From: an uncultured Planctomycetia bacterium
GTDB lineage: Bacteria; Omnitrophota; Gorgyraeia; Duberdicusellales; 4484-171
DNA: 64,000 nucleotides
NCBI GenBank assembly: GCA_964635565.1
Contig: CAZWON010000003.1
Coordinates: 5,345-69,344 of the forward strand
Reading direction: 5' to 3'
Position numbers and translations under genes: made by a program. Positions 44,135-63,042 of this stretch are shown here, piece after piece. The notes beneath the pieces are model-generated. The model ran no database searches. It was given only the letters and a program-made list of their open reading frames with translations, and was not told the origin of the DNA. The stretch's first letter is position 1, and every line of letters begins with the position of its first letter.

Positions 44135-44165
44135 TTTAATCTTTACATTTAAATAAAAAGACTAC

Positions 44166-44696
44166 TTATGATTTTGAGATAAATAAATTGCCTAAAGATT
44201 CTCTCCATATGCCTTTTGATTTTAAAATGAGCTCTACAACTTCTCTTACTGCTCCTTTACCTCCTTTGTGTTGAGTAACATACTGAGCTACTCTTTTAAC
44301 TTCCTTACAAGCATCCCCTACTGCTACAGGCAAACCTATCTTTCTCATTATACCTATATCAATCAAATCATCTCCTACAAAACATATCTCACTGGTAGCA
44401 ACCCTGTATCTTTTTCTTATTTCTCCAAGAAGCTTTTCCTTAGGCAGAACTCCCCCGTATACATCTGCCCCCATATCTTTTGCCCGCCTTCTTACTACAG
44501 CTGAATCCCTGGCAGTAAGAAGAACTACTTTTATCCCTGCTTTTACCAAAAGAAATATACCTAATCCATCTTTTACATTGAAAACTTTAAGCTCCCTCCC
44601 TAAACTATCGTAAATTATCTCTCCTTTTGTTAATACACCATCTACATCTAAAATAAGTAACTTCACTTTTCTAAATAAATATTCTGCCTTTTTCAC
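44166..44696 (-). CDS. kdsC: 3-deoxy-D-manno-octulosonate 8-phosphate phosphatase
   Basis: LLILDVDGVLT HAD motif I, ...VCFVGDDLIDI motif; 176 aa. Confidence 0.85.
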   Translation of the reverse strand: MKKAEYLFRKVKLLILDVDGVLTKGEIIYDSLGRELKVFNVKDGLGIFLLVKAGIKVVLLTARDSAVVRRRAKDMGADVYGGVLPKEKLLGEIRKRYRVATSEICFVGDDLIDIGIMRKIGLPVAVGDACKEVKRVAQYVTQHKGGKGAVREVVELILKSKGIWRESLGNLFISKS

Positions 44697-44715
44697 TCTT
44701 ATTTCTTAACTTCTA

Positions 44716-45693
44716 TTAAATAATTCCTGCAGCAATTAAATCCTGCACATCAAGCATACCTACAACCCGAAGGGTCCTATCTACTACAGGAACTTCGTCA
44801 ATTTTTCTTCTTTCTAAAACCTTAAGAGCATAAGAAGCTAAATCATCTTCATAAACTTTAGTAGGATTTTTTGTCATCACCTCTTTTATTTTTTTCTCAA
44901 GAATATAAGGGTCTTTTTCTAAGTTTCTTCTTAGGTCTCCATCAGTAAATATTCCTACTAACCTTTTTTTTCTATCCACTACCGAAGCTGCTCCTGCATG
45001 TGAAGAGGTGATTTTAACTAAAACTTCTTTTACCAAAGTGTTCTCATTAACTATCGGGTTAAATTTTCCCCTTCGCATAATATCTTCCACCTTAAGCAAT
45101 AATTTCCTTCCCAAAGAACCACGGGGATGAAAAAAAGCAAAATCTTTTTCTCGAAATCCTTTTATTTTCTGCAAACATACTGCTACAGCATCACACATCG
45201 CCAACATTGCTGTAGTAGATGTAGTAGGAGCTAAACCTAAAGAGCATGCCTCCTTTTCCACCTTAACATCAATAATGCTATCAGCGTATTTTGCAAGCTT
45301 AGAGTGTTTGTTCCCGGTAAAAGCGATTATCATAGCGCCAATTTTTTTTATAAAAGGAATGAGATTTTTTATCTCTTCTGTCTCTCCACTATAAGAAAAT
45401 ATACATACAACATCATCTTCTTTAATTCTGCCTAAATCACCATGTACTGCTTCTGCTGCATGCAACCAGAAAGAACTAGAACCTGTGGAAGATAAAGTTG
45501 CTGAAAATTTTTGACCTATAATACCTGCCTTACCCATACCTGTAACAACAACTCTTCCTTTACAAAAAGCAAGGAGTTTAATCGCTTTTAGAAAATTATA
45601 ATTAATATTATTCCTTAAATTTTTTACTGCCTTTGCCTCAATAGTTAATACATCCTTAGCCCACTTTTCTATTTTTTTTCTATTAATCTTCAT
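44716..45693 (-). CDS. kdsD: Arabinose-5-phosphate isomerase (SIS plus tandem CBS domains)
   Basis: GRVVVTGMGKAGIIGQKF SIS motif, C-terminal CBS pair; 325 aa. Confidence 0.88.
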   Translation of the reverse strand: MKINRKKIEKWAKDVLTIEAKAVKNLRNNINYNFLKAIKLLAFCKGRVVVTGMGKAGIIGQKFSATLSSTGSSSFWLHAAEAVHGDLGRIKEDDVVCIFSYSGETEEIKNLIPFIKKIGAMIIAFTGNKHSKLAKYADSIIDVKVEKEACSLGLAPTTSTTAMLAMCDAVAVCLQKIKGFREKDFAFFHPRGSLGRKLLLKVEDIMRRGKFNPIVNENTLVKEVLVKITSSHAGAASVVDRKKRLVGIFTDGDLRRNLEKDPYILEKKIKEVMTKNPTKVYEDDLASYALKVLERRKIDEVPVVDRTLRVVGMLDVQDLIAAGII

Positions 45694-46477
45694 TTCTTAC
45701 TTCCCTTATTTTAATAATCTTCTCTATTAATTTTCCTATATCTTTTAAAGGAAAAGAAGTTGCTCTATCGGAAAGAGCTTTTTGGGGATTAGGATGGACC
45801 TCCAAAAATATGCCATCAACCCCACATCCAACACCTGCTAAACTTAGAGGATAAATAAATTCCCTATCCCCTCCAGATACTCCTTTCTCCAAAGAAGGTT
45901 TTTGCAAAGAATGGGTAACATCAAAAATAACAGGATAACCAAATTTCTTCATAATCAAAAAAGAACGAAAATCAACAATGAGATTATTATAACCGAAGCA
46001 ACTGCCTCTCTCCGTAATAAAAATTTTTTTATTTCCCGTTGATGTTATCTTTTCAATTACATACTTTATATCATAGGGAGACATAAATTGCGCCTTCTTA
46101 ACATTTATAAACTTAAAAGTCTTCGCAGCCTTTATTATCAAATCGGTCTGTCGAGACAAAAATGCTGGTATCTGAATAACATCAAGCACTTTCTCGGCCT
46201 CTTTAATATCATTTTGGCAATGAACATCACTCAAAATTTTAAGGCCTAATTTTTCTTTAACATATGCAAGTATCTTTAAACCTTTCTTTAATCCCGGACC
46301 ACGAAATGACTTAAGAGAAGTCCTGTTTGCTTTATAAAAACTTGCTTTAAAGATAAAGTTTATAGAATAGGAGGAAATTATTTCCTTTAAATACTTTGCT
46401 ATTTCAAAAACCTTTCTTTTGCCTTCTATTACACAAGGGCCAGCAATAAAAATAAAATTATTTTTATTTTTTTTCAT
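45683..46477 (-). CDS. kdsA: 2-dehydro-3-deoxyphosphooctonate aldolase (Kdo8P synthase)
   Basis: FIFIAGPCVIE...KASFDKANRTS-like motif (KASFYKANRTS); 264 aa. Confidence 0.88.
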   Translation of the reverse strand: MKKNKNNFIFIAGPCVIEGKRKVFEIAKYLKEIISSYSINFIFKASFYKANRTSLKSFRGPGLKKGLKILAYVKEKLGLKILSDVHCQNDIKEAEKVLDVIQIPAFLSRQTDLIIKAAKTFKFINVKKAQFMSPYDIKYVIEKITSTGNKKIFITERGSCFGYNNLIVDFRSFLIMKKFGYPVIFDVTHSLQKPSLEKGVSGGDREFIYPLSLAGVGCGVDGIFLEVHPNPQKALSDRATSFPLKDIGKLIEKIIKIREVRNED

Positions 46478-48080
46478 AGGACCTATTTAAAGAGGCGTTT
46501 ATAAACTCCCTGAACAGAGGATGCGCCTTATCTGGTTTTGACTTAAACTCAGGATGAAACTGACAGGCTACAAACCACGGATGATTTTTCAACTCCATTA
46601 TCTCTACAAGATTTTTCTTCTCATAAATCCCAGAAAATACTGCTCCTGCGTTTTCAAAAAGACGTCTAAATTTGTTATTAAACTCATAACGATGTCGATG
46701 GCGTTCGTGGACTAAATTTTTTCCATAAGCATAATATGCTTTTGTGTTATCTTTTATTTTACAAGGATAAACTCCCAGACGCATAGTTGCACCTAAATTT
46801 TTCCTTGCTCGCTGAGAAGGTAAAAGAAAAATTACCGCATGCTTCACTTTGCGATTAAATTCTGTTGAATGAACATCGCGTAACCCCAAAACATTCCTGC
46901 AAAATTCAATAGCAGCAAGCTGCATCCCTAAGCAAATTCCTAAAAAAGGGACATTATGTTCGCGGGCAAATTGTATAGCAGAAATTTTTCCTTCAATGCC
47001 TCTCTCACCAAACCCGCCTGGAACGAGAATACCACCCACATCCTCCAGAAGCTCACCAGGCCTTTTTACTTCAATCTCTTCAGAATCTACTTTCTTTATT
47101 ACCACACGGGCATTATTGCTAAATCCCGCATGGCGTAGTGCCTCATAAATAGACTTGTAAGCATCTTGCAACTGGATATATTTACCCACCACAGCGATGC
47201 TTACTTCTCTTTTAGGATACAAAGCTGGTTCCACTACCTTGCTGTACCACTCTTTAAGGTCTTTCTCTTTACATTTTAAATTGAGCTTAGAAACAATAAT
47301 ATCATCCAAACCTTCCTTGCTAAAAATAAGAGGTATCTCATAGACTTCTTTTACATCCAAAGCTTGAATCACTGCCTGGGGGTCTACATTGCAAAATAAT
47401 GCAATTTTTTCTTTTATCTTTTTATTTAAAGGTTGTTCTGTGCGACAAAGAATAATGTCAGGCTGAATCCCTATCTCTCTAAGTTTCCCTACACTATGCT
47501 GAGTGGGTTTTGTCTTAAGCTCTGAAGCTGCCTTTATAAAAGGAATCAAGCTCATATGGATATTTACAGCATTATATCTTCCTAATTCAATTCTCATCTG
47601 TCTTATCGCCTCTAAGAAGGGTAAACTCTCAATATCTCCCACTGTGCCACCAATTTCTACAATGACAATATCGAATTTCTTATACGCAGAGGCTTTTTTA
47701 ATAAATGCCTTAATCTCATCTGTTATATGAGGAATAACCTGAACCGTACTTCCCAAATAATCACCTTTTCTTTCTTTAGTGATAACAGAATGATAGATTT
47801 TGCCTGTAGTTATATTGTTGTTACTATTTACCACAATCGAAGTAAACCGTTCATAATGTCCTAAATCTAAATCTGTCTCTGCTCCATCATCAGTAACATA
47901 AACCTCTCCATGCTGAAAAGGATTCATCGTACCTGCATCAACATTAATATAGGGATCACATTTTATAATATTAACCTTAAGACCACGGGACTCTAAAAGT
48001 CTTCCTATACAGGCAGAGGCAATTCCTTTTCCTAAACTAGATACCACCCCTCCTGTTATAAAAATATATTTCTTAGGCAT
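46464..48080 (-). CDS. pyrG: CTP synthase
   Basis: MPKKYIFITGGVVSSLGKGI...; glutamine amidotransferase triad region GICLGMQ; 538 aa. Confidence 0.9.
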   Translation of the reverse strand: MPKKYIFITGGVVSSLGKGIASACIGRLLESRGLKVNIIKCDPYINVDAGTMNPFQHGEVYVTDDGAETDLDLGHYERFTSIVVNSNNNITTGKIYHSVITKERKGDYLGSTVQVIPHITDEIKAFIKKASAYKKFDIVIVEIGGTVGDIESLPFLEAIRQMRIELGRYNAVNIHMSLIPFIKAASELKTKPTQHSVGKLREIGIQPDIILCRTEQPLNKKIKEKIALFCNVDPQAVIQALDVKEVYEIPLIFSKEGLDDIIVSKLNLKCKEKDLKEWYSKVVEPALYPKREVSIAVVGKYIQLQDAYKSIYEALRHAGFSNNARVVIKKVDSEEIEVKRPGELLEDVGGILVPGGFGERGIEGKISAIQFAREHNVPFLGICLGMQLAAIEFCRNVLGLRDVHSTEFNRKVKHAVIFLLPSQRARKNLGATMRLGVYPCKIKDNTKAYYAYGKNLVHERHRHRYEFNNKFRRLFENAGAVFSGIYEKKNLVEIMELKNHPWFVACQFHPEFKSKPDKAHPLFREFINASLNRSYEKK

Positions 48081-48810
48081 ATCCTTTTTGAGATAAAATT
48101 CTCTCTACTTTCCTCAAATCCTCCTCTGTATCCACACCCCAAGAATCAAAATTAGTCTCGATAACCTTAATCTTAATTCCTGCCTCAAGAGCTCTTAACT
48201 GTTCTAAGCGCTCAGCCTCTTCAAGAAAAGAATAAGGAAGATTTTTAAAAGTATATAGGAAGTCTTTCGTATACGCATATATTCCTAAGTGCTTATAATA
48301 AATTGATTCTTTATCTTTATCCCTATAGAAAGGTATGGGCAAACGGGAAAAATAAAGAGCAAAATTGTCTTTATCCGTAACTACTTTTACAATATTAACA
48401 TCATTTATTTCCTCAATATCATCTATCTTTTTTTTAACTGTAGCCATAACTAAATCATAATCATCACTCATACAGGAAACAAGACTGTCAATAATAGAAG
48501 GATGAATCAAAGGTTCGTCAGCCTGAATATTAACAATTACCCTTGCATCTATATCTCCTACTACCTCTGCTATTCTATCACTTCCTGAACGATGACCGGA
48601 GGAAGTCAAGACAACCTCTCCTCCAAAATCTTTTACTATTCTTTCTATCTGAACACTGTCACACGCTACAATTAGCTTATCGAGCAAATGTGCTTTTTTA
48701 GCACTTTCCCACGTCCATTGAATAAGAGGCTTACCTAATATTTTCCTTAAGAGTTTATGAGATAATCTCTGTGATTCTAAACGTGCGGGTATAACCCCTA
48801 TTGTCTCCAT
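48073..48810 (-). CDS. kdsB: 3-deoxy-manno-octulosonate cytidylyltransferase (CMP-Kdo synthetase)
   Basis: IGVIPARLESQRLSHKLL...NIQADEP; 245 aa. Confidence 0.88.
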   Translation of the reverse strand: METIGVIPARLESQRLSHKLLRKILGKPLIQWTWESAKKAHLLDKLIVACDSVQIERIVKDFGGEVVLTSSGHRSGSDRIAEVVGDIDARVIVNIQADEPLIHPSIIDSLVSCMSDDYDLVMATVKKKIDDIEEINDVNIVKVVTDKDNFALYFSRLPIPFYRDKDKESIYYKHLGIYAYTKDFLYTFKNLPYSFLEEAERLEQLRALEAGIKIKVIETNFDSWGVDTEEDLRKVERILSQKGYA

Positions 48811-48811
48811 C

Positions 48812-49816
48812 TCAGTGGATAACTAATTTATTAAAACTATTATCTATTACTTCTCGCAGTTCCTGAGGATGTGTAGTAGAAGCACCGAGTTTACCTACTA
48901 CAATTCCTGCAGCAAAATTAGCCAAAATAGCAGCGTCTAAAAAGGAAGCGCCTGCTGTTAAACTCAAGGTAAAAACAGCTATTACTGTGTCTCCTGCTCC
49001 TGTAACATCAAACACCTCCAGTGCAGTGGTAGGAATCTTATAATCTTTGCTCTCGCAAAATAATCTCATTCCTTCCTCTCCCAAAGTAATAAGTAATGCT
49101 TTGGGCTTTATTTTCTCTATAATTGCATTACCTAAAATCTCAATATCAGAAGATTTTTTCACCTTAAATCCAGCAGTATATTCTGCTTCTTTTAGGTTAG
49201 GCGTGAGAGCAGTCACTCCTTCATAATAATCCAGATGCTCTTCTTTTGGGTCAACAGTTATTATCTTACTCTTTTTCTTACATAAACTCACCAACCCCTC
49301 TACCAGATAAGAATTAATCATCCCTTTACCATAATCTTCTAAAATAATAGCGTCAAATTTATCAATTGCTTTTTTAACCTTTCTCAATATTTTATTACAC
49401 GTATCCAAAGACATCTCCTCATGCGACTCCCAATCCACTCTTACTACTTGTTGGTGTCTAGCAAGAACACGCGTTTTTAGAGTAGTAGGCCTTTTTTTAT
49501 CTTTGATAATAAAACTAGTATCTATCTTTTTCTTTTCTACTAAAGAAAGAAGAACTTTCCCAAAGTAATCCTCACCTACAATACCACATAAACTAACCTT
49601 TGCTTCTAAATCAATAATATTAAGCCCCACATTAGCTGTCCCTCCTCCTACATATTTCTCTCTCCTCGCCCATACTACAGGAACAGGCGCTTCAGGAGAA
49701 ATTCTCTCTACTTCTCCAAAGATATAATGGTCTAAAATAAGGTCTCCTACTACAAGAATTTTTTTACCCTTGAATCGGGAGATAATTTTTTTTAATTTCC
49801 GTGGTGCTATATTCAT
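48812..49816 (-). CDS. hldE: D-glycero-beta-D-manno-heptose-7-phosphate kinase (RfaE domain I only; PfkB family)
   Basis: ILVVGDLILDHYIFGEVERISPEAPVPVV..., C-terminal DVTGAGDT; 334 aa. No adenylyltransferase domain. Confidence 0.78.
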   Translation of the reverse strand: MNIAPRKLKKIISRFKGKKILVVGDLILDHYIFGEVERISPEAPVPVVWARREKYVGGGTANVGLNIIDLEAKVSLCGIVGEDYFGKVLLSLVEKKKIDTSFIIKDKKRPTTLKTRVLARHQQVVRVDWESHEEMSLDTCNKILRKVKKAIDKFDAIILEDYGKGMINSYLVEGLVSLCKKKSKIITVDPKEEHLDYYEGVTALTPNLKEAEYTAGFKVKKSSDIEILGNAIIEKIKPKALLITLGEEGMRLFCESKDYKIPTTALEVFDVTGAGDTVIAVFTLSLTAGASFLDAAILANFAAGIVVGKLGASTTHPQELREVIDNSFNKLVIH

Positions 49817-49959: not shown

Positions 49960-51318
49960 TTAGAGAAAAGGAAGATAATCTTTACCACTCGACAAAGGGT
50001 TCAAAGACGATTTTATATGAATATCTGGGTGAGTCTTTAAACTAATCAGCTCTCCTTTCTTAGAAGGGGGGAAAACGATCTCTACCTCAGGAGAAAAAAT
50101 ATCATCCTCATTTTGTTTTCTCACTATTCCTACCCATCCTTTATCCAGTTCTACAATTGTACTTATAGGATATACCCCCAAAAACCCAAAAAATTTCTCA
50201 AATAGCCAAGGGTCAAATAATCCCCCTTTTTCTTTAAGCATAATTTCATATATCATCTCAGGAGGGTAGTATCTTTTATAACTTCTTCTTGAACGGAGCG
50301 CATCGTAACAATCACATAGAGAAACCATTAAAGAAATAAAATGAGGCCTTTTAGAATAATGAACCTTAGGATACCCTTTTAGGTCATAACGTAAATGGTG
50401 CTCAAAAGCAACAACAGGCGGAAGCATTCCTAAGGAGTCTACATAACGAAGAAGAATCTCCGCCCCTAAAATAGTGTGGCTCTTAATATATCTCATTTCT
50501 TCCTCAGTCAAAATACCCGGCTTACTAATTACTCTTTGTGATATAGCAATTTTACCCATATCATGGAAAAGACCTGCTATTCCTATTTCTAATACATTCT
50601 CCTTATTCAGTGATAATTTAGAAGCAAAAACCATTGCCAATACACTTACATTCAAAGAGTGAACAAATGTAGATAAATCGTGCCTTTTGATTGAAACAAG
50701 CATAAGTAAATCCCAACGCCCCCCTAAAACCATATCCAAAATACTTTTTATTACTCTACGTGCATCATAAAAATCAATAGATTCCCCCCTTAATATTCCT
50801 TTAAATGATTCAGAAATAGTCTCTAATGTATTTTCATAAATACTTGGTTCTACAACATTAAATTTTCCATCTTTCTTCTTCTCTTTGCTTATTCCAATTT
50901 TCTTCTTCTCTTTGCTTATTCCAATTCTTCCTATCTCAATATGTTCTAATGCCAGATGAGAAAAATAATTTGAAAAATCTTCTGCACTCTCCACTTTTTC
51001 TACAAGTGCTCCTATATATTTTCTCAACTCCTCTTTACTCACTCCTCTTTTAAATATCATTTTTTCAATACCTTTATCCTCCAAATTTTTTGTAAGGACA
51101 CCTAACTTTTTGCTTAACTCAAAGAATACCTCCTTGTCATAAACTAATTCTCCCCCTACAAAACCAATGGTTATATCTTTTGAGCTTTCCAAAATCTCCC
51201 TTAATATTTTATATATATTATCTATCGCTTCTTCTGATTTCGGATGGGTTTGAGAATAAAGCATTATAATTTGAAGTGCAGATGCTAATTCTTTTAAAAA
51301 AAGTTCTATCTTACTCAT
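49960..51318 (-). CDS. HD-GYP domain phosphodiesterase (putative c-di-GMP PDE) with an N-terminal domain of unknown function
   Basis: HDMGKIAI...HHLRYDLKGYP (HD ... HH..GYP); 452 aa. The start overlaps the upstream gene's stop by 4 nt. Confidence 0.78.
   Translation of the reverse strand: MSKIELFLKELASALQIIMLYSQTHPKSEEAIDNIYKILREILESSKDITIGFVGGELVYDKEVFFELSKKLGVLTKNLEDKGIEKMIFKRGVSKEELRKYIGALVEKVESAEDFSNYFSHLALEHIEIGRIGISKEKKKIGISKEKKKDGKFNVVEPSIYENTLETISESFKGILRGESIDFYDARRVIKSILDMVLGGRWDLLMLVSIKRHDLSTFVHSLNVSVLAMVFASKLSLNKENVLEIGIAGLFHDMGKIAISQRVISKPGILTEEEMRYIKSHTILGAEILLRYVDSLGMLPPVVAFEHHLRYDLKGYPKVHYSKRPHFISLMVSLCDCYDALRSRRSYKRYYPPEMIYEIMLKEKGGLFDPWLFEKFFGFLGVYPISTIVELDKGWVGIVRKQNEDDIFSPEVEIVFPPSKKGELISLKTHPDIHIKSSLNPLSSGKDYLPFL
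50873..50926. repeat. Perfect 27-bp in-frame tandem duplication inside the HD-GYP gene (encodes IGISKEKKK twice)
   Basis: ttcttcttctctttgcttattccaatt appears twice back to back; the protein shows KKKIGISKEKKKIGISKEKKK. Confidence 0.8.
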
Positions 51319-53273
51319 TTTTCCCTAAAAGTCTCTAATGTTTCCTCAATTGCTTTCCTTAAGGCTTTTCTCCCAAAGAGATAAAATCTTTTTCCTAATC
51401 TCTCCAATGGCTCTTTTGCTTCTCTAATATTATTATTTCCAATTAACCTAACATTATCTATCAAAATATTATTTCTTATGCCTAAAGGATTAAAAATATT
51501 AAGAAGCAAACCTACTGCTTTTTTCTTCAAATGAGGGGCCTTCATAACAATAATATTTAAAATCTCACGTTTAAGAAACATACTTTTGTTTTTCAATACT
51601 CTCAAGATAAAATCTTCATCTATAAAAGACATATTTTGTATTACCCTTATAATTTCTATTTTGATAAAAGGGTTATTAATATTAAATATATACTTCATAA
51701 CTTCCCATGATTCTTTTGTGTCTATATATTTTAATATATTTATTGCTTGCTCTGCCCTTTTAACAGTATAAACATTTTCTCTTATTGTTTTAAATAATAA
51801 ACTCAATTTGTCAGGGAAAAACTGCAAAAAAAGTGCTACTAATCTCCCCACTGAAAGGGTATCTTCCATAATTCTCTCTATATATATATTCGGACCAAGC
51901 GTACTGACAGATATTAACTTAGAGAGGGTATAGAAATCTTCATTGCTCATCCTGCTAATATTATTAAGAACAAAATCCTCTAGGGAAGATATAATCTGTT
52001 TTTTTGTCTTTTTACAGATGTCTACTACTTTATCCCTTAAAGAGCTCCTAATCTTTTTATCTAAAATATCAAGGAGATTTCTAATAAATACAAAATCTTC
52101 TAATTCAATGATTTTCTCCCAATTCTTCATAATATTAAAAATTATAAGCTCAATCCGCATATCTTTTTCCTCCAGATAAAGGAGATTTAAAAGCAGATAA
52201 ATATAGTTATTAAATATCTCCTTCTGATTAAATCTAAAAGAATCCGTTGTTCCCATCTCTCTAATAAGAGAACTTAAAGTAATCATATACACAGGAGAAA
52301 CAAATTTATTCTTAAAAGAGGTAATCAATTCTCTAAGTTTTTCTCTTGTTTCTATGCTATTTAAAATATCTCTGTTAGCGACAAATTTCTCCTTAAGATA
52401 ACCAGCTACTTTTTTCTGCTTATCACCATCAAGAAACTGAGAAAATACCTCTAAGGGGAAAGAATCAAATTTCTTATTTTCAAAATTATACTTCCATAGC
52501 GTCTCTGTCAATGTAAAAGGGTCCATCTTCTCTAAAAGATTTTTTATATCTTTCGCTATTTCCTCTTTCTTAAACAAATCTCTATTGTCCAGGCTAAATT
52601 TAACAAAAGATTCACTACATTGCTTAAATTTATCTATATCTGTTTCTCCCAGATTTTGAAGGACTTTTGTTATTTCTAAAGCTAAAGAGGTATCTCCTGT
52701 TAAATCTTCTGGAGAAAAATTTGATAAAACTTCCTCAAAATGATCAGTCAACTTTTTCATCTCCTCCGCAGGTGCTCTTTTTTTATAAGCTCTTTCTATA
52801 ATAAATTTCCAAATATCTTTTCTTTCCTCTCCTTCTGCTGAACCCAATAACTCTGAATAATCTAACTCCTCAACTTCAATACAAGAGACATTCTCCTTCA
52901 TAAGCCAGCTTTTAATCCCCTCCTCTTTAATAATATCCTTAAACGGTTTACTTACAATATCTATAAAAGTAGCTAATCCTCCAATCGTTACCCCTCTAAA
53001 AAACAGTATCTTTTTTACCTTCCTATAATGAAAGTGTTGGGCTAAACTTTTATATAACAATTCTCCCTTAAAATAGTCTTTCTCAACAAGAAGAGAATCA
53101 GAAGTTATACCAATCCAAAAAGGATCTACAGTATAAGTAATTTCCTCTAATAATTGGTAAGTATCAGAAAGAGATTTTTTAAGAACAGGGTGGTTTTTAA
53201 AATATACGCTAGCATTAGTAAGAGAAATTTTGAGTTGCTTAAAAAACCTCTCAATTAGTTCTCTTTCTATCAT
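51315..53273 (-). CDS. Hypothetical 652-aa helical protein; N-terminal ~140 aa paralogous to the N-domain of the adjacent HD-GYP protein
   Basis: No Walker, tubulin or other catalytic motifs. N-terminus MIERELIERFFKQLKISLTNASVYFKNHPVLKK aligns with MSKIELFLKELASALQIIMLYSQTHPKSEEAI of the downstream protein. Start overlaps the ftsA-like stop (ATGA) and stop overlaps the HD-GYP start. Confidence 0.4.
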   Translation of the reverse strand: MIERELIERFFKQLKISLTNASVYFKNHPVLKKSLSDTYQLLEEITYTVDPFWIGITSDSLLVEKDYFKGELLYKSLAQHFHYRKVKKILFFRGVTIGGLATFIDIVSKPFKDIIKEEGIKSWLMKENVSCIEVEELDYSELLGSAEGEERKDIWKFIIERAYKKRAPAEEMKKLTDHFEEVLSNFSPEDLTGDTSLALEITKVLQNLGETDIDKFKQCSESFVKFSLDNRDLFKKEEIAKDIKNLLEKMDPFTLTETLWKYNFENKKFDSFPLEVFSQFLDGDKQKKVAGYLKEKFVANRDILNSIETREKLRELITSFKNKFVSPVYMITLSSLIREMGTTDSFRFNQKEIFNNYIYLLLNLLYLEEKDMRIELIIFNIMKNWEKIIELEDFVFIRNLLDILDKKIRSSLRDKVVDICKKTKKQIISSLEDFVLNNISRMSNEDFYTLSKLISVSTLGPNIYIERIMEDTLSVGRLVALFLQFFPDKLSLLFKTIRENVYTVKRAEQAINILKYIDTKESWEVMKYIFNINNPFIKIEIIRVIQNMSFIDEDFILRVLKNKSMFLKREILNIIVMKAPHLKKKAVGLLLNIFNPLGIRNNILIDNVRLIGNNNIREAKEPLERLGKRFYLFGRKALRKAIEETLETFREK

Positions 53274-54418
53274 CAGAAATACTCTCTAAAAACATTAACT
53301 ACCCTACACCATAAAGAGTCTTGAATATCTTTCTCAAATAACATCTTTTTCCCATAATATACACAGCCAAACGCCGCAGGACACCTTTCTCTAAAATAAG
53401 AGTTACTATGGATATTCAAATTAAAATTACCCTTCATAAAAGTGTAAAAACCATCTCTCTCTGTTAACTCTCCTACAAAAGATACCGTATAATCTTTTTG
53501 CTGACGTATCTTATTAATATCATGTATAACTTCTTCCATGTTATTCTTAATAACTTCCTTAACAATACTATTAATAATAGTAGCTTCTATAGTAAAATAC
53601 CTATCTCCATTTTTAATGCTTATCTCCTTATCGTGGGGGAGACTGTCAAAAGAACTATAATTTATTACTAAATTTTTCGCTAAATATTCAGGCAGACGAA
53701 ACCTTTTTGCTATCTCTTCTATAATATTATCCTCTCCAAATTCATAAACTCTCTCAAATAATAACCTTCTTCCTAAAAAACACCACAAAAAAGTAGCTTT
53801 CTCTTTTATCTTTATAATAAAAGAGTGGACTTTGCTCGGTATACGATAAAGAGCGCTATACTCAGCGATACTTTCGTGAATAAAGGTAGAAAACTTCCGG
53901 TTAACATTACTGAAGCATTCTCTAAAAGTATCATATAAATCGTAAGGTATAGTTATAAGCATAGATTTTAAAAAAACTTTCTTTGCCCATTCTCCTATAG
54001 GTGAATTATAAAAAATTTTCTCTCCAATTCTATATTCCATAATAATATGATGAAGACAATAATCTCCTAAGTCTAAAGCAATATTTTCCATTTGTTTTTT
54101 TATAGAGACAATGTCTTGAAGAGTTAATTTCTTATAGAAACTTAGGGGCACAACATCCTCTAATATCTTTATTTTTGCATAAGAAGAAGGTAATTTAAAA
54201 AATATATCTCCCATTTTAAAAGAATGCTTTTTTTCCTGGCTTCTAATATACCCGTCAATTTCGTCAATATTAGCAATAATAAAATCTCTTAAATCTTTTC
54301 CTGAATAAGATATTTTCTGCCTTCCTTCAACATACGGAATTATTATCTTTTTTTTACTTAAAACAAAAGAAAAAAATAAGTTATCTTTCTCTAAACTTAA
54401 ACCTCCGTAAACTTTCAT
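53273..54418 (-). CDS. ftsA: Divergent FtsA-like actin-fold protein with degenerate nucleotide-binding motifs
   Basis: Occupies the ftsA slot after ftsQ. HHIIMEYRIGEKIFYNSPIGE parallels FtsA HVIPQEYAIDYQEGIKNPVG. SFIIKIKEKATFLWCFLGRRLLFERVYEFGEDNIIEEIAKRFRLP parallels [43 protein letters not shown] with the glycines lost. C-terminal SLWCRVVNVFREYF resembles the FtsA membrane-targeting helix (GSWIKRLNSWLRKEF). Confidence 0.5.
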   Translation of the reverse strand: MKVYGGLSLEKDNLFFSFVLSKKKIIIPYVEGRQKISYSGKDLRDFIIANIDEIDGYIRSQEKKHSFKMGDIFFKLPSSYAKIKILEDVVPLSFYKKLTLQDIVSIKKQMENIALDLGDYCLHHIIMEYRIGEKIFYNSPIGEWAKKVFLKSMLITIPYDLYDTFRECFSNVNRKFSTFIHESIAEYSALYRIPSKVHSFIIKIKEKATFLWCFLGRRLLFERVYEFGEDNIIEEIAKRFRLPEYLAKNLVINYSSFDSLPHDKEISIKNGDRYFTIEATIINSIVKEVIKNNMEEVIHDINKIRQQKDYTVSFVGELTERDGFYTFMKGNFNLNIHSNSYFRERCPAAFGCVYYGKKMLFEKDIQDSLWCRVVNVFREYF

Positions 54419-54427
54419 CTTTCGTTC

Positions 54428-55195
54428 TTACCATTTATTGCCAACATATATATCGCCGTCCGTAGAGGCATGTCTTAAGTCTATATACCGCAAAGAATCG
54501 ATTTTATTACTGAATTTTTTCTCAAGAAGCCTCTCCAGAAGAAAAAGTTTTTTAGAAAAATTTCCCTCTCCCACAATTATATTAACATCTTTTATAAAAA
54601 ATGAGATAGTATAAAGGGAAGTAGCACTAATAGTATTTATATTAAATCTATGGATTAAAGAACTCTTTTTCAACTCCTTAATCAATTGGTAAACAGAAAC
54701 AAGTCTTCTATCATTAATTGCTTTACCTATTTCTAAAGGAAAATTATAATCTCCTAGCTCAATAATAAAAATGTTAGGGTAGGGAGTGGGGCATCTTTTT
54801 TTTAATAATACTCTCTCTTCATCTAAAATATAAAAACCATCCTTTTTTAATTGAACAAAAGGTTCTCTCTTTTCTGCTTTGATTCTTAAAGTAGAGGGAA
54901 ATACTTTTACTATAGAAACATCTTTAATATTAGGATATTTTTTTATTATTTTACTGCGGAGAGCTTCTACCTTGATAGAAAATATCAATTTTCCTTTTAT
55001 TTGATCCTCTATATTTTTTCCAATCTCTATATTAGAAGTAATGGTATTAATGTTAAATGTAGGTAAAGAAGCTATTTGAAAAGAAAGAAAAAATATCCCT
55101 CCTAATGTTACAAAAATAAGAAATATCTTAACTATATTACTCAAAGGGATAAATTTTCTTCTCTCTTTAAACTTTTTGCTTCGCTTTTTTCTCAT
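54428..55195 (-). CDS. ftsQ: Cell division protein FtsQ/DivIB (TM anchor plus POTRA)
   Basis: Basic N-terminus, single TM (IFLIFVTLGGIFFLSF), POTRA-like region; position between ddl and ftsA. Confidence 0.72.
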   Translation of the reverse strand: MRKKRSKKFKERRKFIPLSNIVKIFLIFVTLGGIFFLSFQIASLPTFNINTITSNIEIGKNIEDQIKGKLIFSIKVEALRSKIIKKYPNIKDVSIVKVFPSTLRIKAEKREPFVQLKKDGFYILDEERVLLKKRCPTPYPNIFIIELGDYNFPLEIGKAINDRRLVSVYQLIKELKKSSLIHRFNINTISATSLYTISFFIKDVNIIVGEGNFSKKLFLLERLLEKKFSNKIDSLRYIDLRHASTDGDIYVGNKW

Positions 55196-56141
55196 TCTTT
55201 AAAGCAGATATTAACATTCTCATTATAAGATTATCAAAATCTATTCCGCACACTTTAGCAGAAAGAGGAAGCAGACTATGAGACGTAAGGCCAGGAATAG
55301 AATTAACCTCCAAAACAAAAGGATTATTATAATTATCCAACCTAATATCTACTCTTGAAAAGTGCCTACACCCTAAACAACGATGTGCTCTTTCCGCCAT
55401 TTCCATAACTTTTTTATATGTATCTTTATTTAAAGGAGCAGGTGCTTTAAATTCTGCCAAGGCATCACTATACTTAGTAGTAAAATCAAAATAACCTTCT
55501 TTAGGAACAATCTCAATAACACTTAAAGGCTTATCATCAAGTATCCCTACAGTAATTTCTCTACCTCGAATATACTCCTCTATAATTAACCTATCACTTA
55601 TCTCAAATGCTTTATTAATACTCTTATCCCATGCCTTAATATCATCAACAATAAATACTCCAATACTTGAACCAGAATAATAAGGCTTTATAACTTTAGG
55701 AAAAGATAAAGGAGAAGCTACCTTATCTTTGTGGATAATATAGAAATCAGGTGTCAAAACATTATTCTCTAAAAATAACCTCTTAGAAGCAATTTTATCC
55801 ATTGCCAAATAGCTTGCTTCTGGTCCAGAGCCTGTATAAGGAATATCAATGCCTTCCAGTATTTTTTGAATCTGGCCATCTTCTCCAAACTCACCATGAA
55901 GAGCAATAAAAGCAATTTCAATATTGTTCGCTAAAAGAATTTCTTCTATCGTATGTTCATCAGAAGTATTTATCTCTATCTCTTCTGCATCTAATCCCTT
56001 TCTTTTAAGGGCTAAAAAAACTTCTCTTCCCGAGATTAAGGAAATTTTTCTTTCTTCAGAGATTCCTCCTTTAAGTACACCAATTTTATAATTCTTAAGC
56101 TCCTCTAAATCTCTCTCTATCTTTTTAGTTAACATCCCCAT
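55167..56141 (-). CDS. ddl: D-alanine--D-alanine ligase
   Basis: IALHGEFGEDGQIQKILEGIDIPYTGSG..., ATP-grasp C-terminus; 324 aa. Confidence 0.9.
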   Translation of the reverse strand: MGMLTKKIERDLEELKNYKIGVLKGGISEERKISLISGREVFLALKRKGLDAEEIEINTSDEHTIEEILLANNIEIAFIALHGEFGEDGQIQKILEGIDIPYTGSGPEASYLAMDKIASKRLFLENNVLTPDFYIIHKDKVASPLSFPKVIKPYYSGSSIGVFIVDDIKAWDKSINKAFEISDRLIIEEYIRGREITVGILDDKPLSVIEIVPKEGYFDFTTKYSDALAEFKAPAPLNKDTYKKVMEMAERAHRCLGCRHFSRVDIRLDNYNNPFVLEVNSIPGLTSHSLLPLSAKVCGIDFDNLIMRMLISALKNEKKAKQKV

Positions 56142-57001
56142 CTTACCACTTCTTCTTCTAAATATATTCCAAATCTATCGTAAACCCTTTCTTTTATTAC
56201 ACTAATAAGATAAATTACATCCTTGGTTTTTGCTTTCCCCCTATTAATAATGAAATTAGCATGTTTTAAAGAAATCTGAGCATCTCCTACTCTAAATCCT
56301 TTAAGAAAACACCTTTCAATAAGCAACCCCACGCTTACATAAGGAGGATTTTTGAAAATACACCCTGCAGAAGGAAACATAAAATCCTGATACGCCAATC
56401 TTTGCCTTAGATATAACCCTATAGAATCTTTTATACCTGCAGCTTCCTGCAATTTTATTTTTACTTTAATTATTATATATTCTTTTAAAGAAGAATAATG
56501 ATAACCAAATTTTATCTCATCTTTCCCTATATGCTTTATCTCACCTTCTTTGGTAAAAACCACAACCTCCTCAACAAGAGAAGAAAACTCCTTCCCAAAA
56601 GCAGAAGCATTCATTACTGTCATCCCCCCAATAGTTGCAGGGATACCCACTAATTCCTCTAATCCCTTAAGACTTTTCCCTATAGCATAAGAGATTAATT
56701 TAGATAAAGGAGTCATTGCTCCTACTATTAAAGTCGTATTATCCTGCCTTTCTATAAAACTGAACTCCTCTCCTAAAGTAACAATTGGTTTATCGATACT
56801 ACTATCACTGATAAGAAGATTTGAGCCTCCGCCTAAAAAATAAAAATCTTTCTCTTTTTTAATAATTCTCTGCAGTTCGTCTATGCTATGGGCTATAAAA
56901 AAATAAGACGCTCTTCCTCCTATCTTAAAAGTATTTAGATTCTTCAATAAAAAATCTCTCCTTACATCTATTTTCTTATTAGATTTTAGTCTAATACCCA
57001 T
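56129..57001 (-). CDS. murB: UDP-N-acetylenolpyruvoylglucosamine reductase
   Basis: NTFKIGGRASYFF...FLGGGSNLL FAD-binding motif; 290 aa. Confidence 0.88.
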   Translation of the reverse strand: MGIRLKSNKKIDVRRDFLLKNLNTFKIGGRASYFFIAHSIDELQRIIKKEKDFYFLGGGSNLLISDSSIDKPIVTLGEEFSFIERQDNTTLIVGAMTPLSKLISYAIGKSLKGLEELVGIPATIGGMTVMNASAFGKEFSSLVEEVVVFTKEGEIKHIGKDEIKFGYHYSSLKEYIIIKVKIKLQEAAGIKDSIGLYLRQRLAYQDFMFPSAGCIFKNPPYVSVGLLIERCFLKGFRVGDAQISLKHANFIINRGKAKTKDVIYLISVIKERVYDRFGIYLEEEVVRWGC

Positions 57002-58388
57002 AAACAGTATCGGTCTTTAAAGAAATTTCTTTCAAAATAGTATCCATTATTATATTTATATCTCCTGCTCCTAAACCCATTACTAAATCACCTTCTTTTA
57101 ATAATAGAGGGACCTCAAAAGGCAATTTCTCTTTGGGAATATAAACAACATTAGAAAAATATTTTTTAATCTCCTTTGCAAGAAAATGTCCATTGATTCC
57201 TTCCTGGGAAGTTTCTCCTGCAGAATATATATCCGTTACCACAAGATAATCACAGGAGTAGAAACATTTTGCAAATTCTCTATAAAGCAACTTTACCCTA
57301 CTGTAACGATGTGGTTGAATAATAACAACTAATCTTTTAGGTAAAAGTTGCCGTGCTGCTTTTAATGTTGCCGATATCTCTGTGGGATGATGGGCATAAT
57401 CATCTACAAAGATTATCCCTCCTATATTAGCTTTAAATTGAAAACGGCGAGATGTTCCTTTGAACTCTCTCAATAAGGGGATAATATTAAAGATATCCTC
57501 ACCTAAATAACTACATAAGGATATAACTGCTAAGGCATTTAAAACATTATGTTCTCCTAAAAGAGACAATTCTATCCCTTTCACTTTTTTTTCTTTCAAG
57601 ATAAGATCAAAAACTGTATATTTACTATAAAAACGGACATTCTCTGCTCTAATAGTATTGCTTTTGAGAAACCCATAGGAACACGAAGAAACTTTTTCTA
57701 ATAACTGTCTTACATTTTTATCATCACCACATCCAATGGTTAAAGACCTTGTATTTAACATAAGCTTATAGAAACTATTATATAAGTTTTCAAAACTCTT
57801 ATAAAAGTCTAAATGCTCATAATCTATATTGGTCACAACAAAAATCCAAGGATTATAATACAAAAAACTACCATCGCTCTCATCTGCTTCAATCACAAAC
57901 AAATCTTTACCACTCCAAGCGTATCTGCCAAAATCCAAAGAGATTCCTCCAATAAATACATTAGGGGCATATCCCAACTTAGTTAAAACAAATGCTATTA
58001 AAGCACTGGTAGTAGTCTTACCATGACTTCCACTTATCACAATATTTTTAGCATTCAAAGAAATCCATGATAACAACTCTGCTCTTTTTATAACCTCAAT
58101 ACCTTTCCTCTTGGCTTCTAAGATCTCAATATTATCCTCTTTAACTGCAGAAGAATAACAGAGAAGTTGGGCGCCATAAATATTTTCTCTTCTATGACCT
58201 ACATAAACCTTAAAATCCTCTTTTCTTAATGCCATTATATTTTTGCTTTCCTTTATATCGGAACCGCTCACAATAAACCCTCTATCTCTTAACAAAAATG
58301 CCAAACCCATCATTCCTACTCCTCCTATCCCCACCAGATGTATCCTCTTTATCTTAAAAAGGTAATCCTTCATAATATTACTCTTCAA
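56991..58388 (-). CDS. murC: UDP-N-acetylmuramate--L-alanine ligase
   Basis: IHLVGIGGVGMMGLAFLL, GSHGKTTTSALIA P-loop; 465 aa. Confidence 0.9.
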   Translation of the reverse strand: MKSNIMKDYLFKIKRIHLVGIGGVGMMGLAFLLRDRGFIVSGSDIKESKNIMALRKEDFKVYVGHRRENIYGAQLLCYSSAVKEDNIEILEAKRKGIEVIKRAELLSWISLNAKNIVISGSHGKTTTSALIAFVLTKLGYAPNVFIGGISLDFGRYAWSGKDLFVIEADESDGSFLYYNPWIFVVTNIDYEHLDFYKSFENLYNSFYKLMLNTRSLTIGCGDDKNVRQLLEKVSSCSYGFLKSNTIRAENVRFYSKYTVFDLILKEKKVKGIELSLLGEHNVLNALAVISLCSYLGEDIFNIIPLLREFKGTSRRFQFKANIGGIIFVDDYAHHPTEISATLKAARQLLPKRLVVIIQPHRYSRVKLLYREFAKCFYSCDYLVVTDIYSAGETSQEGINGHFLAKEIKKYFSNVVYIPKEKLPFEVPLLLKEGDLVMGLGAGDINIIMDTILKEISLKTDTVYGY

Positions 58389-59397
58389 AACTGCGAGAGA
58401 ACTCTCTACAATCTACTATTATATCTATCTTCTTAAGATTGTCCTTAATCCTTAAGCGCTCTTCACTATCTGAAAGAAGTTTCTCTAGGCACTCTTTAAA
58501 TGCCTTAAAAGAAAAATTTCTCTGGTCTACCATATAACAGGCATCCCTTTTCTTTAAGTAAGAAACATTAACATATTGATGATTTTCTGCACCAGGATAA
58601 GGCACAAAAATCGCAGGAATCTTATAAGAAACTACCTCACCAATACTTAATGCTCCTCCTCTACAAATCACAATATCTGCTGCGGAATAAAGAAATTCTA
58701 TATTCTCACAAAAATCATAAACTATAGCTTTTTTCTTTATTTTATCATAAAATCCTAAAAAATAAGAGTATTGTTTAAATCCCGTAATATGAATAATTGA
58801 ACAATCCTCTTCTAAAATCTCTATCATTTGCCTAAAAACAGTATTGATAAATTCTGAACCTTGACTTCCCCCAAAACACATAATTACAGGAATGTTATAA
58901 TCCAATCCTAAAATTTTTCTTGCATATTTTTTATCATATCTCATAAGTTCATCTCTTATAGGGACTTTTACCCATTTATCTTTATTAGAAAACTTAAAAG
59001 GAGGCATCCCTCGGTATACTCTTTTAACGAATAGAGCAAGGACTCTGTTTGTTTTACCCAAAATAACATTGGGTTCATAAATAGCAACATCTATAAAAAA
59101 TAAACGGGAAAGTAAAATCAAGAAAAAAGTATCCCTACCTCCAAAACCAATTACTCTGTGAGGACGGAGCTTAAATATTAAATAAACCGACTCCCAAAAC
59201 CTAAAGATACTTTCGATAAGGATATTTCTAAATTTCAAAGTAAAACCGTAAACACTAAAACCATCTTTTCTCAATAAAAATTTAAAATAATAGGAAGGAA
59301 CAAAAAAGAAAACTCTTTCTTTGCCAAAATAATTAGCTAGACACCTTGCAGGGAAAAAATGTCCTCCACTTCTATCGCATGCGAGGATAATCCTCAT
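58378..59397 (-). CDS. murG: Undecaprenyldiphospho-muramoylpentapeptide beta-N-acetylglucosaminyltransferase
   Basis: MRIILACDRSGGHFFPA (GGTGGH-like) motif; 339 aa; position in the dcw cluster. Confidence 0.85.
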   Translation of the reverse strand: MRIILACDRSGGHFFPARCLANYFGKERVFFFVPSYYFKFLLRKDGFSVYGFTLKFRNILIESIFRFWESVYLIFKLRPHRVIGFGGRDTFFLILLSRLFFIDVAIYEPNVILGKTNRVLALFVKRVYRGMPPFKFSNKDKWVKVPIRDELMRYDKKYARKILGLDYNIPVIMCFGGSQGSEFINTVFRQMIEILEEDCSIIHITGFKQYSYFLGFYDKIKKKAIVYDFCENIEFLYSAADIVICRGGALSIGEVVSYKIPAIFVPYPGAENHQYVNVSYLKKRDACYMVDQRNFSFKAFKECLEKLLSDSEERLRIKDNLKKIDIIVDCREFSRSFEE

Positions 59398-60502
59398 AAC
59401 TCTTACTCACATTAAAGAATATCCCTAAAAGTATATAGTGGATAAGTAAATTACTGCCTCCATAGCTTATAAAAGGAAGGGACATACCTTTAGTAGGAAA
59501 AAGCCCACAACTTACCCCTACATTAATTATAACCTCAAGGCCAAGCATGATACTTACTCCCATACAGAAATAACAAAAGAATACATTACCAATTCTCCAG
59601 GAAACTCGTAATAGCGTTATAATTATAGAAAAATATAATAATAGAACTCCTAAACACCCTACTATCCCACACTCCTCTGCAATAATAGAAAAAATAAAAT
59701 CAGTATGTGCCGCAGGAAGAAAAAACAATTTTTGCTTACCTTCTCCCAAGCCTACCCCCCAAATTCCTCCCTCTGCAAAAGCAATTTGAGACTGAAGTAT
59801 CTGAAATCCGCTCCCCTTAGGGTCCCTCCATGGATTTAGGAATACCAAAAGTCGTTTAGACCGATAAGGGTCTGCTTTTATCAGAACTAAAGAGGCAACA
59901 ACTCCTAAGAGAACAAGGAAAAAAATATGCTTAGTTTTAACCTTTATCAGAAAAAACATAAAAAGGATCCATATCAACCAGAAAATAATCATTCCAAAAT
60001 CGGGCTCAAGAATAACCAGAAGAAAGACTAAACATGCTACACAAATAAAAGGAAAAACACCTTCTTTAAAATGTTGCATGTGGTTACCCTTCCTAAAAAA
60101 ATAACCTGACGTATATAAAAGAAAAGAAAGTTTTAATAGCTCAGAAGGTTGAAAATTAAAATTACCTATTTCTAACCATCTTCGTGCTCCTCCTATTTTC
60201 CTGCCTACAATAAGGACTAAAAAAAGAAGCAATAGATTAAAGAGGAATATTTTTCTGTTATGCTCTCTTAAAATATCAACATTCACAAATAATATTGCAA
60301 AAAATGCCACTAAAGAAATACACAAAAATAAAAACTGTCTCTTAAGAAAATATTCAGAATCTTGATATAATCTCCACGCATATATTCCTGAAGAACTATA
60401 TACCATAAGCAAGCCGAATAAACTCAAGCTAAGAACTGCTAAAAATATAAACTGTCTTTTTTTCCGTAGTTCTTCCTTGGGTATATCGATGATTTTTGTC
60501 AT
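59372..60502 (-). CDS. ftsW: SEDS family peptidoglycan glycosyltransferase FtsW
   Basis: Ten-TM SEDS topology, conserved PAAHTDFIFS motif; position between murD and murG. Confidence 0.85.
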   Translation of the reverse strand: MTKIIDIPKEELRKKRQFIFLAVLSLSLFGLLMVYSSSGIYAWRLYQDSEYFLKRQFLFLCISLVAFFAILFVNVDILREHNRKIFLFNLLLLFLVLIVGRKIGGARRWLEIGNFNFQPSELLKLSFLLYTSGYFFRKGNHMQHFKEGVFPFICVACLVFLLVILEPDFGMIIFWLIWILFMFFLIKVKTKHIFFLVLLGVVASLVLIKADPYRSKRLLVFLNPWRDPKGSGFQILQSQIAFAEGGIWGVGLGEGKQKLFFLPAAHTDFIFSIIAEECGIVGCLGVLLLYFSIIITLLRVSWRIGNVFFCYFCMGVSIMLGLEVIINVGVSCGLFPTKGMSLPFISYGGSNLLIHYILLGIFFNVSKSYEDYPRMR

Positions 60503-60529
60503 TTCAAAAAAAAGATAAGAAAGAGCTTT

Positions 60530-61774: not shown

Positions 61775-61795
61775 TTTCGTTAGACTTAAATATAA

Positions 61796-62887: not shown

Positions 62888-63042
62888 AAATTTCCTCCTC
62901 TGTGTTTGTCAATTCATCAAGTATTCAACCACTATTTATCAAAAATCAATATATAATTTTAAGATACCATTCTCAATAGCCAAAAACAAGCTATTCCTGT
63001 GCTTATCCCTTGATTATGGAAGATGTAAATATATTTATGAGC

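Follow-up and report, generated by a model that had tools for sequence, protein, structure and literature searches.

A divergent FtsA homologue with replaced nucleotide-site residues and a conserved C-terminal tail in an uncultured bacterium of the PVC superphylum

The 64,000-nucleotide stretch of contig CAZWON010000003.1 analyzed here (the window) carries in its division and cell wall (dcw) gene cluster an open reading frame (ORF) of 381 aa encoding a homologue of the division protein FtsA. The residues of its nucleotide site have been replaced, while its 1C subdomain and its amphipathic C-terminal tail are conserved throughout a subfamily of similar proteins. We consider it probable that this divergent FtsA is a nucleotide-independent, membrane-anchored adaptor or scaffold of the divisome. 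A first-pass annotation, made from the sequence of the window, had described a nucleotide-free pseudo-ATPase FtsA acting as a membrane tether or scaffold. The ORF and the strings that it quoted were found in their places, FtsA came first in the TIGR01174, profile, and Foldseek tests, the gene occupies the ftsA slot after ftsQ, and the interpretation is supported in every part that could be tested.

Homology to FtsA, rather than to PilM or MreB, is supported by profile statistics that are independent of any structural model. The sole NCBIfam match of the ORF was TIGR01174 (E = 7.6e−11; 41.7 bits for a cutoff of 175.85), and the sole Pfam match was SHS2_FTSA, below threshold (residues 97 to 147; E = 0.15; 12.9 bits versus 25.4), with no match to PF14450 (FtsA), PilM_2, or MreB. 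The curated family thresholds for FtsA (TIGR01174 equivalog, PF14450, and PF02491) were not reached, and five entries of the subfamily (P0001 to P0003, P0065, and P0067) had no precomputed Pfam domain. A single-sequence phmmer search of the PDB sequences gave FtsA at an E value of 0.64. The profile of 57 subfamily members matched the FtsAs of Vibrio (3.2e−16), Escherichia coli (4.9e−16), Staphylococcus aureus (6e−13, over profile positions 4 to 339), and Thermotoga maritima (2e−7), the structures concerned being 7q6f, 7q6d, 3wt0, and 1e4f, and reached PilM only at 1e−3. The alignment of the hidden Markov model to FtsA structures spans residues 39 to 257 of the ORF. In the reverse direction, a profile of canonical and intermediate FtsAs scored the ORF at 179 bits (E = 6e−54). 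The same profile found no second FtsA-like ORF among the ORFs of the window, and so the canonical second copy that the first-pass annotation had proposed to look for is absent from these 64 kb.

A structural model agrees with this assignment. AlphaFold2, given a 125-row alignment of the target, four subfamily members, and 120 FtsAs, returned a model with a predicted local distance difference test (pLDDT) score of 92.5 and a predicted template modeling (pTM) score of 0.88. In the model, the four-subdomain FtsA fold (1A, 2A, and 2B, with 1C/SHS2 in place of 1B) is kept. The 18 best Foldseek matches in the PDB were all FtsA (E = 5.6e−24; template modeling [TM] score of ~0.73), followed by PilM (0.56 to 0.60) and then MreB (~0.5, with root mean square deviations of 7 to 12 Å). 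By these TM scores, the three families that the first pass had proposed to compare rank as FtsA (0.73), PilM (0.58), and MreB (~0.5). Since the alignment leans on canonical FtsA rows, the model indicates compatibility with the fold and is not independent proof of it.

The residues of the nucleotide site were compared in a MAFFT alignment of the target with 120 canonical FtsAs, to which the following counts refer. None of the canonical motifs (phosphate-1 D-x-G-[ST]-x-K, phosphate-2 D-x-G-x-x-T, and adenosine G-G) is present, and only T209 and G316 remain of them; the lost residues have mostly given way to Lys or Glu. In the phosphate-1 loop, the Asp (114/120), Gly (104/120), Ser or Thr (119/120), and Lys (111/120) are replaced by S8, E10, K11, and N13, respectively. 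In phosphate-2, K203 stands for the Asp (117/120) and K205 for the invariant Gly (120/120), and the Thr (116/120) is kept as T209. The A-E-x-x-K motif of the 2B helix, which we take from general knowledge of the ASKHA (acetate and sugar kinase/Hsc70/actin) fold to be the ribose/adenine site, keeps its Ala (120/120) as A247, with K248 for the Glu (116/120) and V251 for the invariant Lys (120/120), where the subfamily mostly has F or L. The first Gly of the adenosine motif (120/120) is kept as G316, as it is in 55 of the 57 subfamily members, and the second position (G in 66 and R in 53 of the 120) is E317; G323 is also kept. The first pass had called all three motifs devoid of glycine, a slight overstatement, since in the adenosine motif only position 317 has changed. 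Its register for the motifs was correct: HMMER pairs IKIKEKAT with VDIGGGTM (within IIKIKEKATF against E. coli FtsA, 7q6d), and MAFFT gives the same register with E. coli FtsA and with the 120 canonical FtsAs. Because the HMMER pairwise alignment agrees, the register is not the artifact of one aligner, and on these alignments the residues have been replaced and are not misaligned. We infer that the Mg-ATP site of the target has lost ligand binding.

The subfamily came to light when a profile of three sequences was run exhaustively with HMMER against 1.84 billion cluster representatives; 241 relatives were returned at an E value of ≤1e−3. About 60 full-length proteins of ~380 aa scored below 1e−27, after which the values fell sharply to ~1e−13 for proteins of ~400 aa. 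The subfamily comprises at least 57 clusters at 50% identity, and its alignment holds 57 full-length members, with a mean identity of ~30% and full-length intact ORFs of ~380 aa throughout, none of which carries a Pfam domain or a product name in databases. Of the acid and the Gly of phosphate-1 and the acid and the Gly of phosphate-2, no member has all four (0/57); 3 members have the phosphate-1 Gly and 12 the phosphate-2 acid. Entropy at the phosphate-1, phosphate-2, and A-E-x-x-K contact positions is 2.1 to 3.5 bits in the subfamily and below 0.9 bits in both the Omnitrophota-type and the other FtsA sets, with a lower value (1.6 bits) in the subfamily for the phosphate-1 Ser column (D12 in the target). 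By contrast, D102, H123, Y129, P140, G316, and G351 are near-invariant. Hypervariable contact sites combined with fixed structural positions, as would be expected once ligand binding is lost, are a mark of relaxed constraint on the ligand-contacting residues rather than of a new conserved site; the ATP-site residues of the subfamily are no longer constrained. Erosion goes furthest in the subclade of the target (P0001 to P0003 and P0005), where the phosphate-2 Asp has become Lys or Asn. We found no description in the literature of FtsA homologues without nucleotide-binding residues.

The 1C subdomain has the lowest mean entropy of the four core domains, and together with the C-terminal 15 residues it has the lowest of the whole protein. 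It contains HHIIMEYRI (residues 123 to 131), which matches the pattern H-x-I-x-x-E-Y-x-I noticed in the first pass and is comparable to HVIPQEYAI of E. coli. The residues conserved in the subfamily in this region are K96, D102, K107, E111, L115, H123, Y129, and P140, and those conserved in 2B are Y254, F257, K264, E265, K269, and Y274. The resemblance of the tail to the amphipathic helix of E. coli FtsA, also pointed out in the first pass, was borne out by its helical hydrophobic moment, 0.60 in the target (reached by only 3% of shuffled tails), 0.57 ± 0.10 in the subfamily, and 0.57 in the membrane-targeting sequence of E. coli FtsA. The tail follows the pattern S-[FL]-[LFW]-x-[RK]-[ILV]-[LVI]-x-[IV]-Y-[KR]-[ED]-Y-F, with the hydrophobic residues conserved at i/i+3/i+4 spacing and the final YF present in 57 of the 57 members. 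The AlphaFold2 model places a terminal helix at residues 369 to 380, with almost no linker before the tail. These features predict membrane binding by the tail. In our view, the invariance of the last residues exceeds the need of a generic amphipathic helix, and for this reason the tail could double as a docking motif.

Comparison with known proteins places the target near FtsAs of Omnitrophota. Canonical FtsA (TIGR01174; PF02491 plus PF14450; structures 1E4G, 4A2A, 7Q6D, and 3WQU) has in common with it the fold with the 1C (SHS2) insertion, the post-ftsQ slot in the dcw cluster, an amphipathic C terminus ending in an aromatic residue (…LRKEF in E. coli), the H-x-I-x-x-E-Y-x-I strand, and the conserved D102, P140, G142, G316, and G351. 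The target differs in its length (381 versus ~410 to 420 aa), its near lack of a linker, the loss of the ATP-site residues, and the absence of a following ftsZ. The nearest canonical FtsAs end in …EYF and, where named, come from Candidatus Omnitrophota. Like the target, these proteins (e.g., P0084, P0157, and P0194) have the ending …Y-x-E-Y-F and are encoded in the order murC-murB-ddl-ftsQ-ftsA with no ftsZ alongside, but they keep D-I-G-S-S-K at phosphate-1, the phosphate-2 Asp and first Gly, and the adenosine Gly, and are recognized by Pfam, unlike the subfamily of the target. The canonical Omnitrophota FtsAs themselves deviate from the textbook motifs, with D-I-G-[AS]-D-x-T instead of D-I-G-G-G-T at phosphate-2 and often G-R instead of G-G at the adenosine motif. 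The 57 eroded proteins were monophyletic in a neighbor-joining tree built from 247 sequences. Their sister group was formed by eight partly eroded proteins ending in …WEEYF (P0074, P0081, P0082, P0091, P0092, P0097, P0121, and P0123), and the next branch by P0075 (EYF tailed) and P0107; the tree carries no support values and may be affected by long branches, and a nesting of the subfamily inside the EYF clade is unproven. The eight proteins have the same tail and partly degenerate phosphate-1 and phosphate-2 motifs (e.g., GLQINATN and INVGKTK), but most of them keep the phosphate-2 Gly and the G-G of the adenosine motif, and they score ~1e−13 to 1e−6 against the subfamily profile.

The dcw cluster is complete, and the FtsA-like ORF stands in the place of ftsA at its 3′ end (Table 1). 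The ORF starts 9 nt after the stop codon of ftsQ and ends in a TGATG overlap with the start codon of the following 652-aa ORF. On the upstream side of the cluster, the Mur ligase gene is cut by the window end; two Logan short-read contigs of the same genome (L001 and L011) extend it, by gene calls, with mraZ, rsmH, a 120-aa ORF, and ftsI. The 120-aa ORF, between rsmH and ftsI, has no Pfam match and occupies the usual position of ftsL. The full order is mraZ-rsmH-(120-aa ORF)-ftsI-mur-mraY-murD-ftsW-murG-murC-murB-ddl-ftsQ-FtsA-like gene. The FtsA-like gene follows ftsQ directly not only in the window but also in each of the seven further subfamily loci that were fetched (among L001 to L008). 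When the window is compared with two of these loci, L005 and L006, no genes of the cluster have evolved faster than those of the early-divisome adaptors, cytoplasmic (FtsA-like) and periplasmic (FtsQ).

Table 1. Features of the FtsA-like gene and its surroundings in the window
Feature	Position	Strand	Remarks
KDO/LPS (3-deoxy-D-manno-octulosonate/lipopolysaccharide) block	42598..49816	(−)	directly downstream of the division operon
HD-GYP-type phosphodiesterase-like protein	49960..51318	(−)	Pfam HD_5, E = 4e−11; HD, E = 4e−9
652-aa ORF	51315..53273	(−)	translationally coupled to the FtsA-like gene; no Pfam, NCBIfam, or PDB match
FtsA-like ORF, 381 aa	53273..54418	(−)	uninterrupted, ATG to TGA; stop codon 53273-53275
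C-terminal amphipathic helix SLWCRVVNVFREYF, residues 368-381	53276..53317	(−)	putative membrane-targeting sequence
Adenosine motif equivalent, VGELTERDGF, residues 315-324	53447..53476	(−)	
2B-helix A-E-x-x-K equivalent, AKNLV, residues 247-251	53666..53680	(−)	
Phosphate-2 loop equivalent, IKIKEKAT, residues 202-209	53792..53815	(−)	canonical D-I-G-x-x-T-T replaced by K-I-K-E-K-A-T
1C (SHS2-type) subdomain, ~residues 77-157	53948..54190	(−)	includes HHIIMEYRI; weak Pfam SHS2_FTSA on residues 97-147
Phosphate-1 loop equivalent, GLSLEKDN, residues 6-13	54380..54403	(−)	canonical D-I-G-[ST]-S-K replaced by S-L-E-K-D-N
ftsQ	54428..55195	(−)	directly upstream; Pfam POTRA_1, E = 4e−7; FtsQ_DivIB_C, E = 7e−4
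Remainder of dcw cluster: ddl, murB, murC, murG, ftsW, murD, mraY, Mur ligase	55167..63972	(−)	Pfam scans

Homologues of the 652-aa ORF lie 3′ of the FtsA-like gene in L003 (11155-13116) and L004 (6573-8531), with 57% identity, and the distant L008 (5222-5551) has only the N-terminal part (32% identity over 99 aa; E = 1e−12). The ORF is not present in L005, L006, and L007. A lineage-specific role as partner of the FtsA-like protein is possible for the 652-aa protein; as a universal partner it was rejected on account of these three loci, and as a substitute for FtsZ because it matches nothing known and is not FtsZ-like. An ATGA overlap couples it to the gene of the HD-GYP-type protein, with which it shares an N-terminal domain of ~95 aa (BLASTP; E = 1e−6), suggesting that the two proteins carry paralogous sensor/adaptor modules. 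A link between cyclic di-GMP (c-di-GMP) and the division operon is possible. The HD-GYP-type protein also has an exact tandem duplication (GISKEKKK-GISKEKKK). The KDO/LPS block comprises genes for a PfkB-type kinase, kdsB, pyrG, kdsA, kdsD, an HAD phosphatase, an LptC-LptA fusion-like ORF, and lptB, which makes the organism an LPS-bearing diderm. The FtsA-like gene of L005 and L006 lies immediately next to this block.

No ftsZ follows the FtsA-like gene in six independent subfamily contexts (the window, L003/L004, L005, L006, L007, and L008). The gene is followed by the 652-aa ORF and then the HD-GYP gene in the window and in L003/L004, by a pfkB-type kinase gene and KDO genes in L005 and L006, by the gene of a 1,207-aa protein to which Pfam assigns no family in L007, and by the N terminus of the 652-aa ORF homologue in L008. 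Neither FtsZ nor MreB was detected by tblastn or phmmer in the window or in the 11 fetched loci. The scaffold interpretation of the first pass is supported as a whole, but its word "tether" is doubtful if a tether of FtsZ is meant, since no locus examined has a linked ftsZ. Large proteins without a Pfam match were found after ftsA in L007 (4067-7690, the 1,207-aa protein) and at one canonical Omnitrophota locus, L010 (7411-10704; 1,097 aa). They are homologous over ~280 N-terminal residues (34% identity; E = 1e−36) and make up a second recurrent neighbor of ftsA in the clade, at one eroded and one canonical locus.

The organism belongs within the Planctomycetota-Verrucomicrobiota-Chlamydiota (PVC) superphylum, near Omnitrophota or deep in Planctomycetota. 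Two GTDB species genomes with orthologues of 48 to 50% identity are labeled uncultured Planctomycetia bacterium, and one related contig (Ga0180301) comes from Guaymas Basin sediment (PMC6478937). MurG, MurC, MurB, and Ddl are 31 to 48% identical to those of two Omnitrophota metagenome-assembled genomes (MAGs) and 44 to 59% identical to those of other contigs bearing the subfamily. An Rfam scan of the window gave one tRNA and no rRNA.

As adaptor or scaffold, the divergent FtsA would insert its C-terminal tail into the inner membrane, and its 1C and 2B surfaces would hold or organize FtsQ, FtsI, and FtsW, late divisome proteins whose genes lie in this cluster. For the formation of actin-like filaments or minirings on membranes and the recruitment of late divisome proteins through 1C, the strong conservation of 1C within the subfamily offers indirect support. 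The adaptor would probably work without a Z-ring, given that ftsZ is unlinked to the gene in every relative. A scaffold role is made plausible by MreB-organized, FtsZ-independent division in Chlamydia, an FtsZ-less PVC bacterium (bioRxiv 10.1101/2021.11.08.467742), together with the similarity of the double filaments of FtsA and MreB. There, a membrane-associated protein of the actin fold organizes the synthesis of septal peptidoglycan. For the target, this case is a conceptual precedent only, as the chlamydial protein is a different member of the actin family and an active ATPase. How FtsZ-less PVC bacteria divide is an acknowledged open question (PMC5147048, PMC12673574). As a tentative extension, to which we attach clearly less confidence than to the scaffold role, FtsA would survive in an uncultured FtsZ-less PVC clade as a nucleotide-independent, membrane-bound, actin-fold scaffold that alone organizes the FtsQ/FtsL/FtsI/FtsW machinery of septal peptidoglycan, i.e., an "FtsA-only" divisome. 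In some lineages, such a scaffold may work with the cotranscribed 652-aa helical protein and the HD-GYP c-di-GMP phosphodiesterase.

Several observations weigh against a scaffold that acts without nucleotide and without a Z-ring, and they are considered here along with the alternatives. An ordinary tether of the Z-ring, with ftsZ elsewhere in the genome and the FtsZ C-terminal peptide bound through 2B independently of ATP, would be consistent with the FtsA fold, the retained 2B subdomain with its several conserved positions, and the membrane tail. The search covered the 64 kb of the window plus a few kilobases (~70 kb of the genome), and ftsZ may lie elsewhere. Two sources report FtsZ in Omnitrophota, or in most of them (PMC5945725 and PMC12283558). 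Adjacent ftsZ is also lacking at two canonical Omnitrophota loci (L009, 6001-7227; L010, 6001-7257), where ftsA follows a gene in the ftsQ position; the missing linkage thus characterizes the wider clade, and we rejected it as a feature specific to the eroded subfamily. On the other hand, ftsQ-ftsA-ftsZ linkage is the norm, and its absence from all six subfamily contexts and from both canonical loci speaks against a tether. So does the work of Pende et al. (2021; PMC8178401), in which Omnitrophica are counted as FtsZ-less along with Planctomycetes and Chlamydiae, FtsA being absent only from the latter two. Reviews thus disagree, as Omnitrophica/Omnitrophota are elsewhere counted among the phyla with FtsZ or a complete dcw cluster. 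In Planctomycetota, to which the MAG labels point, ftsZ has been lost throughout and ftsA in most species (PMC12673574). The lineage evidence itself conflicts, the MAG labels being Planctomycetia and the nearest FtsAs being those of Omnitrophota. All in all, we regard a Z-ring tether as rather unlikely. That the gene is a relic of FtsZ loss, drifting toward its own loss with little or no function and with motifs that merely decay, seems to us less probable again. The FtsA-like protein (~30%) and FtsQ (31 to 38%) are less identical between the window and L005/L006 than MurG/MurC/MurB/Ddl (46 to 59%) and PfkB/KdsB/KdsA/KdsD (62 to 77%), and such fast divergence could also reflect weak selection. 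The hypervariable former active-site positions and the outright loss of ftsA in most Planctomycetota and in Chlamydiota would fit a relic as well. Nevertheless, uninterrupted ORFs of constant length across the 57 or more clusters, the invariant YF, the conserved tail and 1C, and the conserved gene position and translational coupling would not be preserved by drift over such distances. We favor function over a relic: the intact length, the amphipathic tail with its invariant YF, and the coupling point to selection on the subfamily.

Nucleotide independence is likewise open to objection, as the loss of binding is deduced from sequence and as T209, G316, and G323 are kept, so that a degenerate pocket could hold some ligand. 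The pocket might have been remodeled into a lysine-rich site (K11, K203, K205, and K207) for a nucleotide or a phosphorylated ligand, in which case the protein would not be a pseudo-ATPase. The replacements are indeed conserved among orthologues of 48 to 50% identity (GLSLEK and I-K/R-EK in P0001 to P0003), which could mean a new local function. Across the subfamily, however, the phosphate-2 Asp site varies among N, D, K, S, H, and Y and the invariant Gly site among G, R, K, E, S, and D, and a Lys in place of the metal- or water-coordinating Asp and of the loop Gly removes the canonical way in which the ASKHA fold holds Mg-ATP. We judge a remodeled pocket improbable, slightly more so than a relic. 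The fold assignment has its own weak point: the high confidence of the AlphaFold2 model hinges on an alignment made up mostly of canonical FtsAs, and a run from only three subfamily sequences gave an all-helical model with a pLDDT of 40.6. Another SHS2-containing ASKHA protein, such as a PilM-like platform for a pilus or secretion system, could be envisaged, as PilM (2YCH, 5EOU) is the closest non-FtsA fold, also has an SHS2-type 1C, supplies the next-best structures, and matches the subfamily profile weakly. Its match in sequence and structure is nevertheless much weaker, FtsA scoring 10 to 13 orders of magnitude better, and TIGR01174 is the only NCBIfam hit. PilM is a scaffold rather than an enzyme, binds ATP, is encoded with pilNOPQ, and is without a C-terminal amphipathic helix; the target lies in the ftsA slot among dcw and KDO/LPS genes, with no pilN/O/P/Q nearby. 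In the neighbor-joining tree, moreover, the subfamily is sister to the eight EYF-tailed, partly eroded proteins, beside the EYF-tailed FtsAs of the Omnitrophota type, with the nesting unproven as noted. We consider a PilM-like protein very improbable. MreB reaches only the TM score given above, and the target has no Pfam match to MreB, whose family (MreB_Mbl) carries 1B instead of 1C.

The subfamily shows that an FtsA whose nucleotide site has decayed, and which has no ftsZ linked to it, can still persist, with constraint remaining on its membrane anchor and on 1C. It is effectively a natural separation-of-function variant, which suggests that membrane anchoring and recruitment through 1C have an importance that does not depend on ATP and may not depend on FtsZ. 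This is relevant to how some bacteria may divide without a Z-ring. As neither a Pfam domain nor a product name is attached to the subfamily proteins, genomes that encode them will be scored as being without ftsA in COG- or Pfam-based surveys of gene presence and absence. If an FtsA-only divisome exists, some of the reported "losses of ftsA" in PVC phyla are failures of detection.

The remainder of the window showed some further features. Nearly all credible ORFs of at least 100 aa over positions 1 to 64000 lie on the minus strand. With a GC content of ~33%, all 2-kb bins have a negative GC skew (−0.12 to −0.40); such a strand bias is unusually strong. A 296-aa ORF (30945-31835, minus strand) with an IS200-like Y1 transposase domain and a C-terminal helix-turn-helix (HTH_38/HTH_7) lies amid glycosyltransferase genes of the LPS core. 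Among housekeeping genes on the same strand are a 582-aa ORF (36338-38086) without a Pfam match and a 503-aa ORF (29359-30870) whose only match, below threshold, is to Sortilin-Vps10 repeats.

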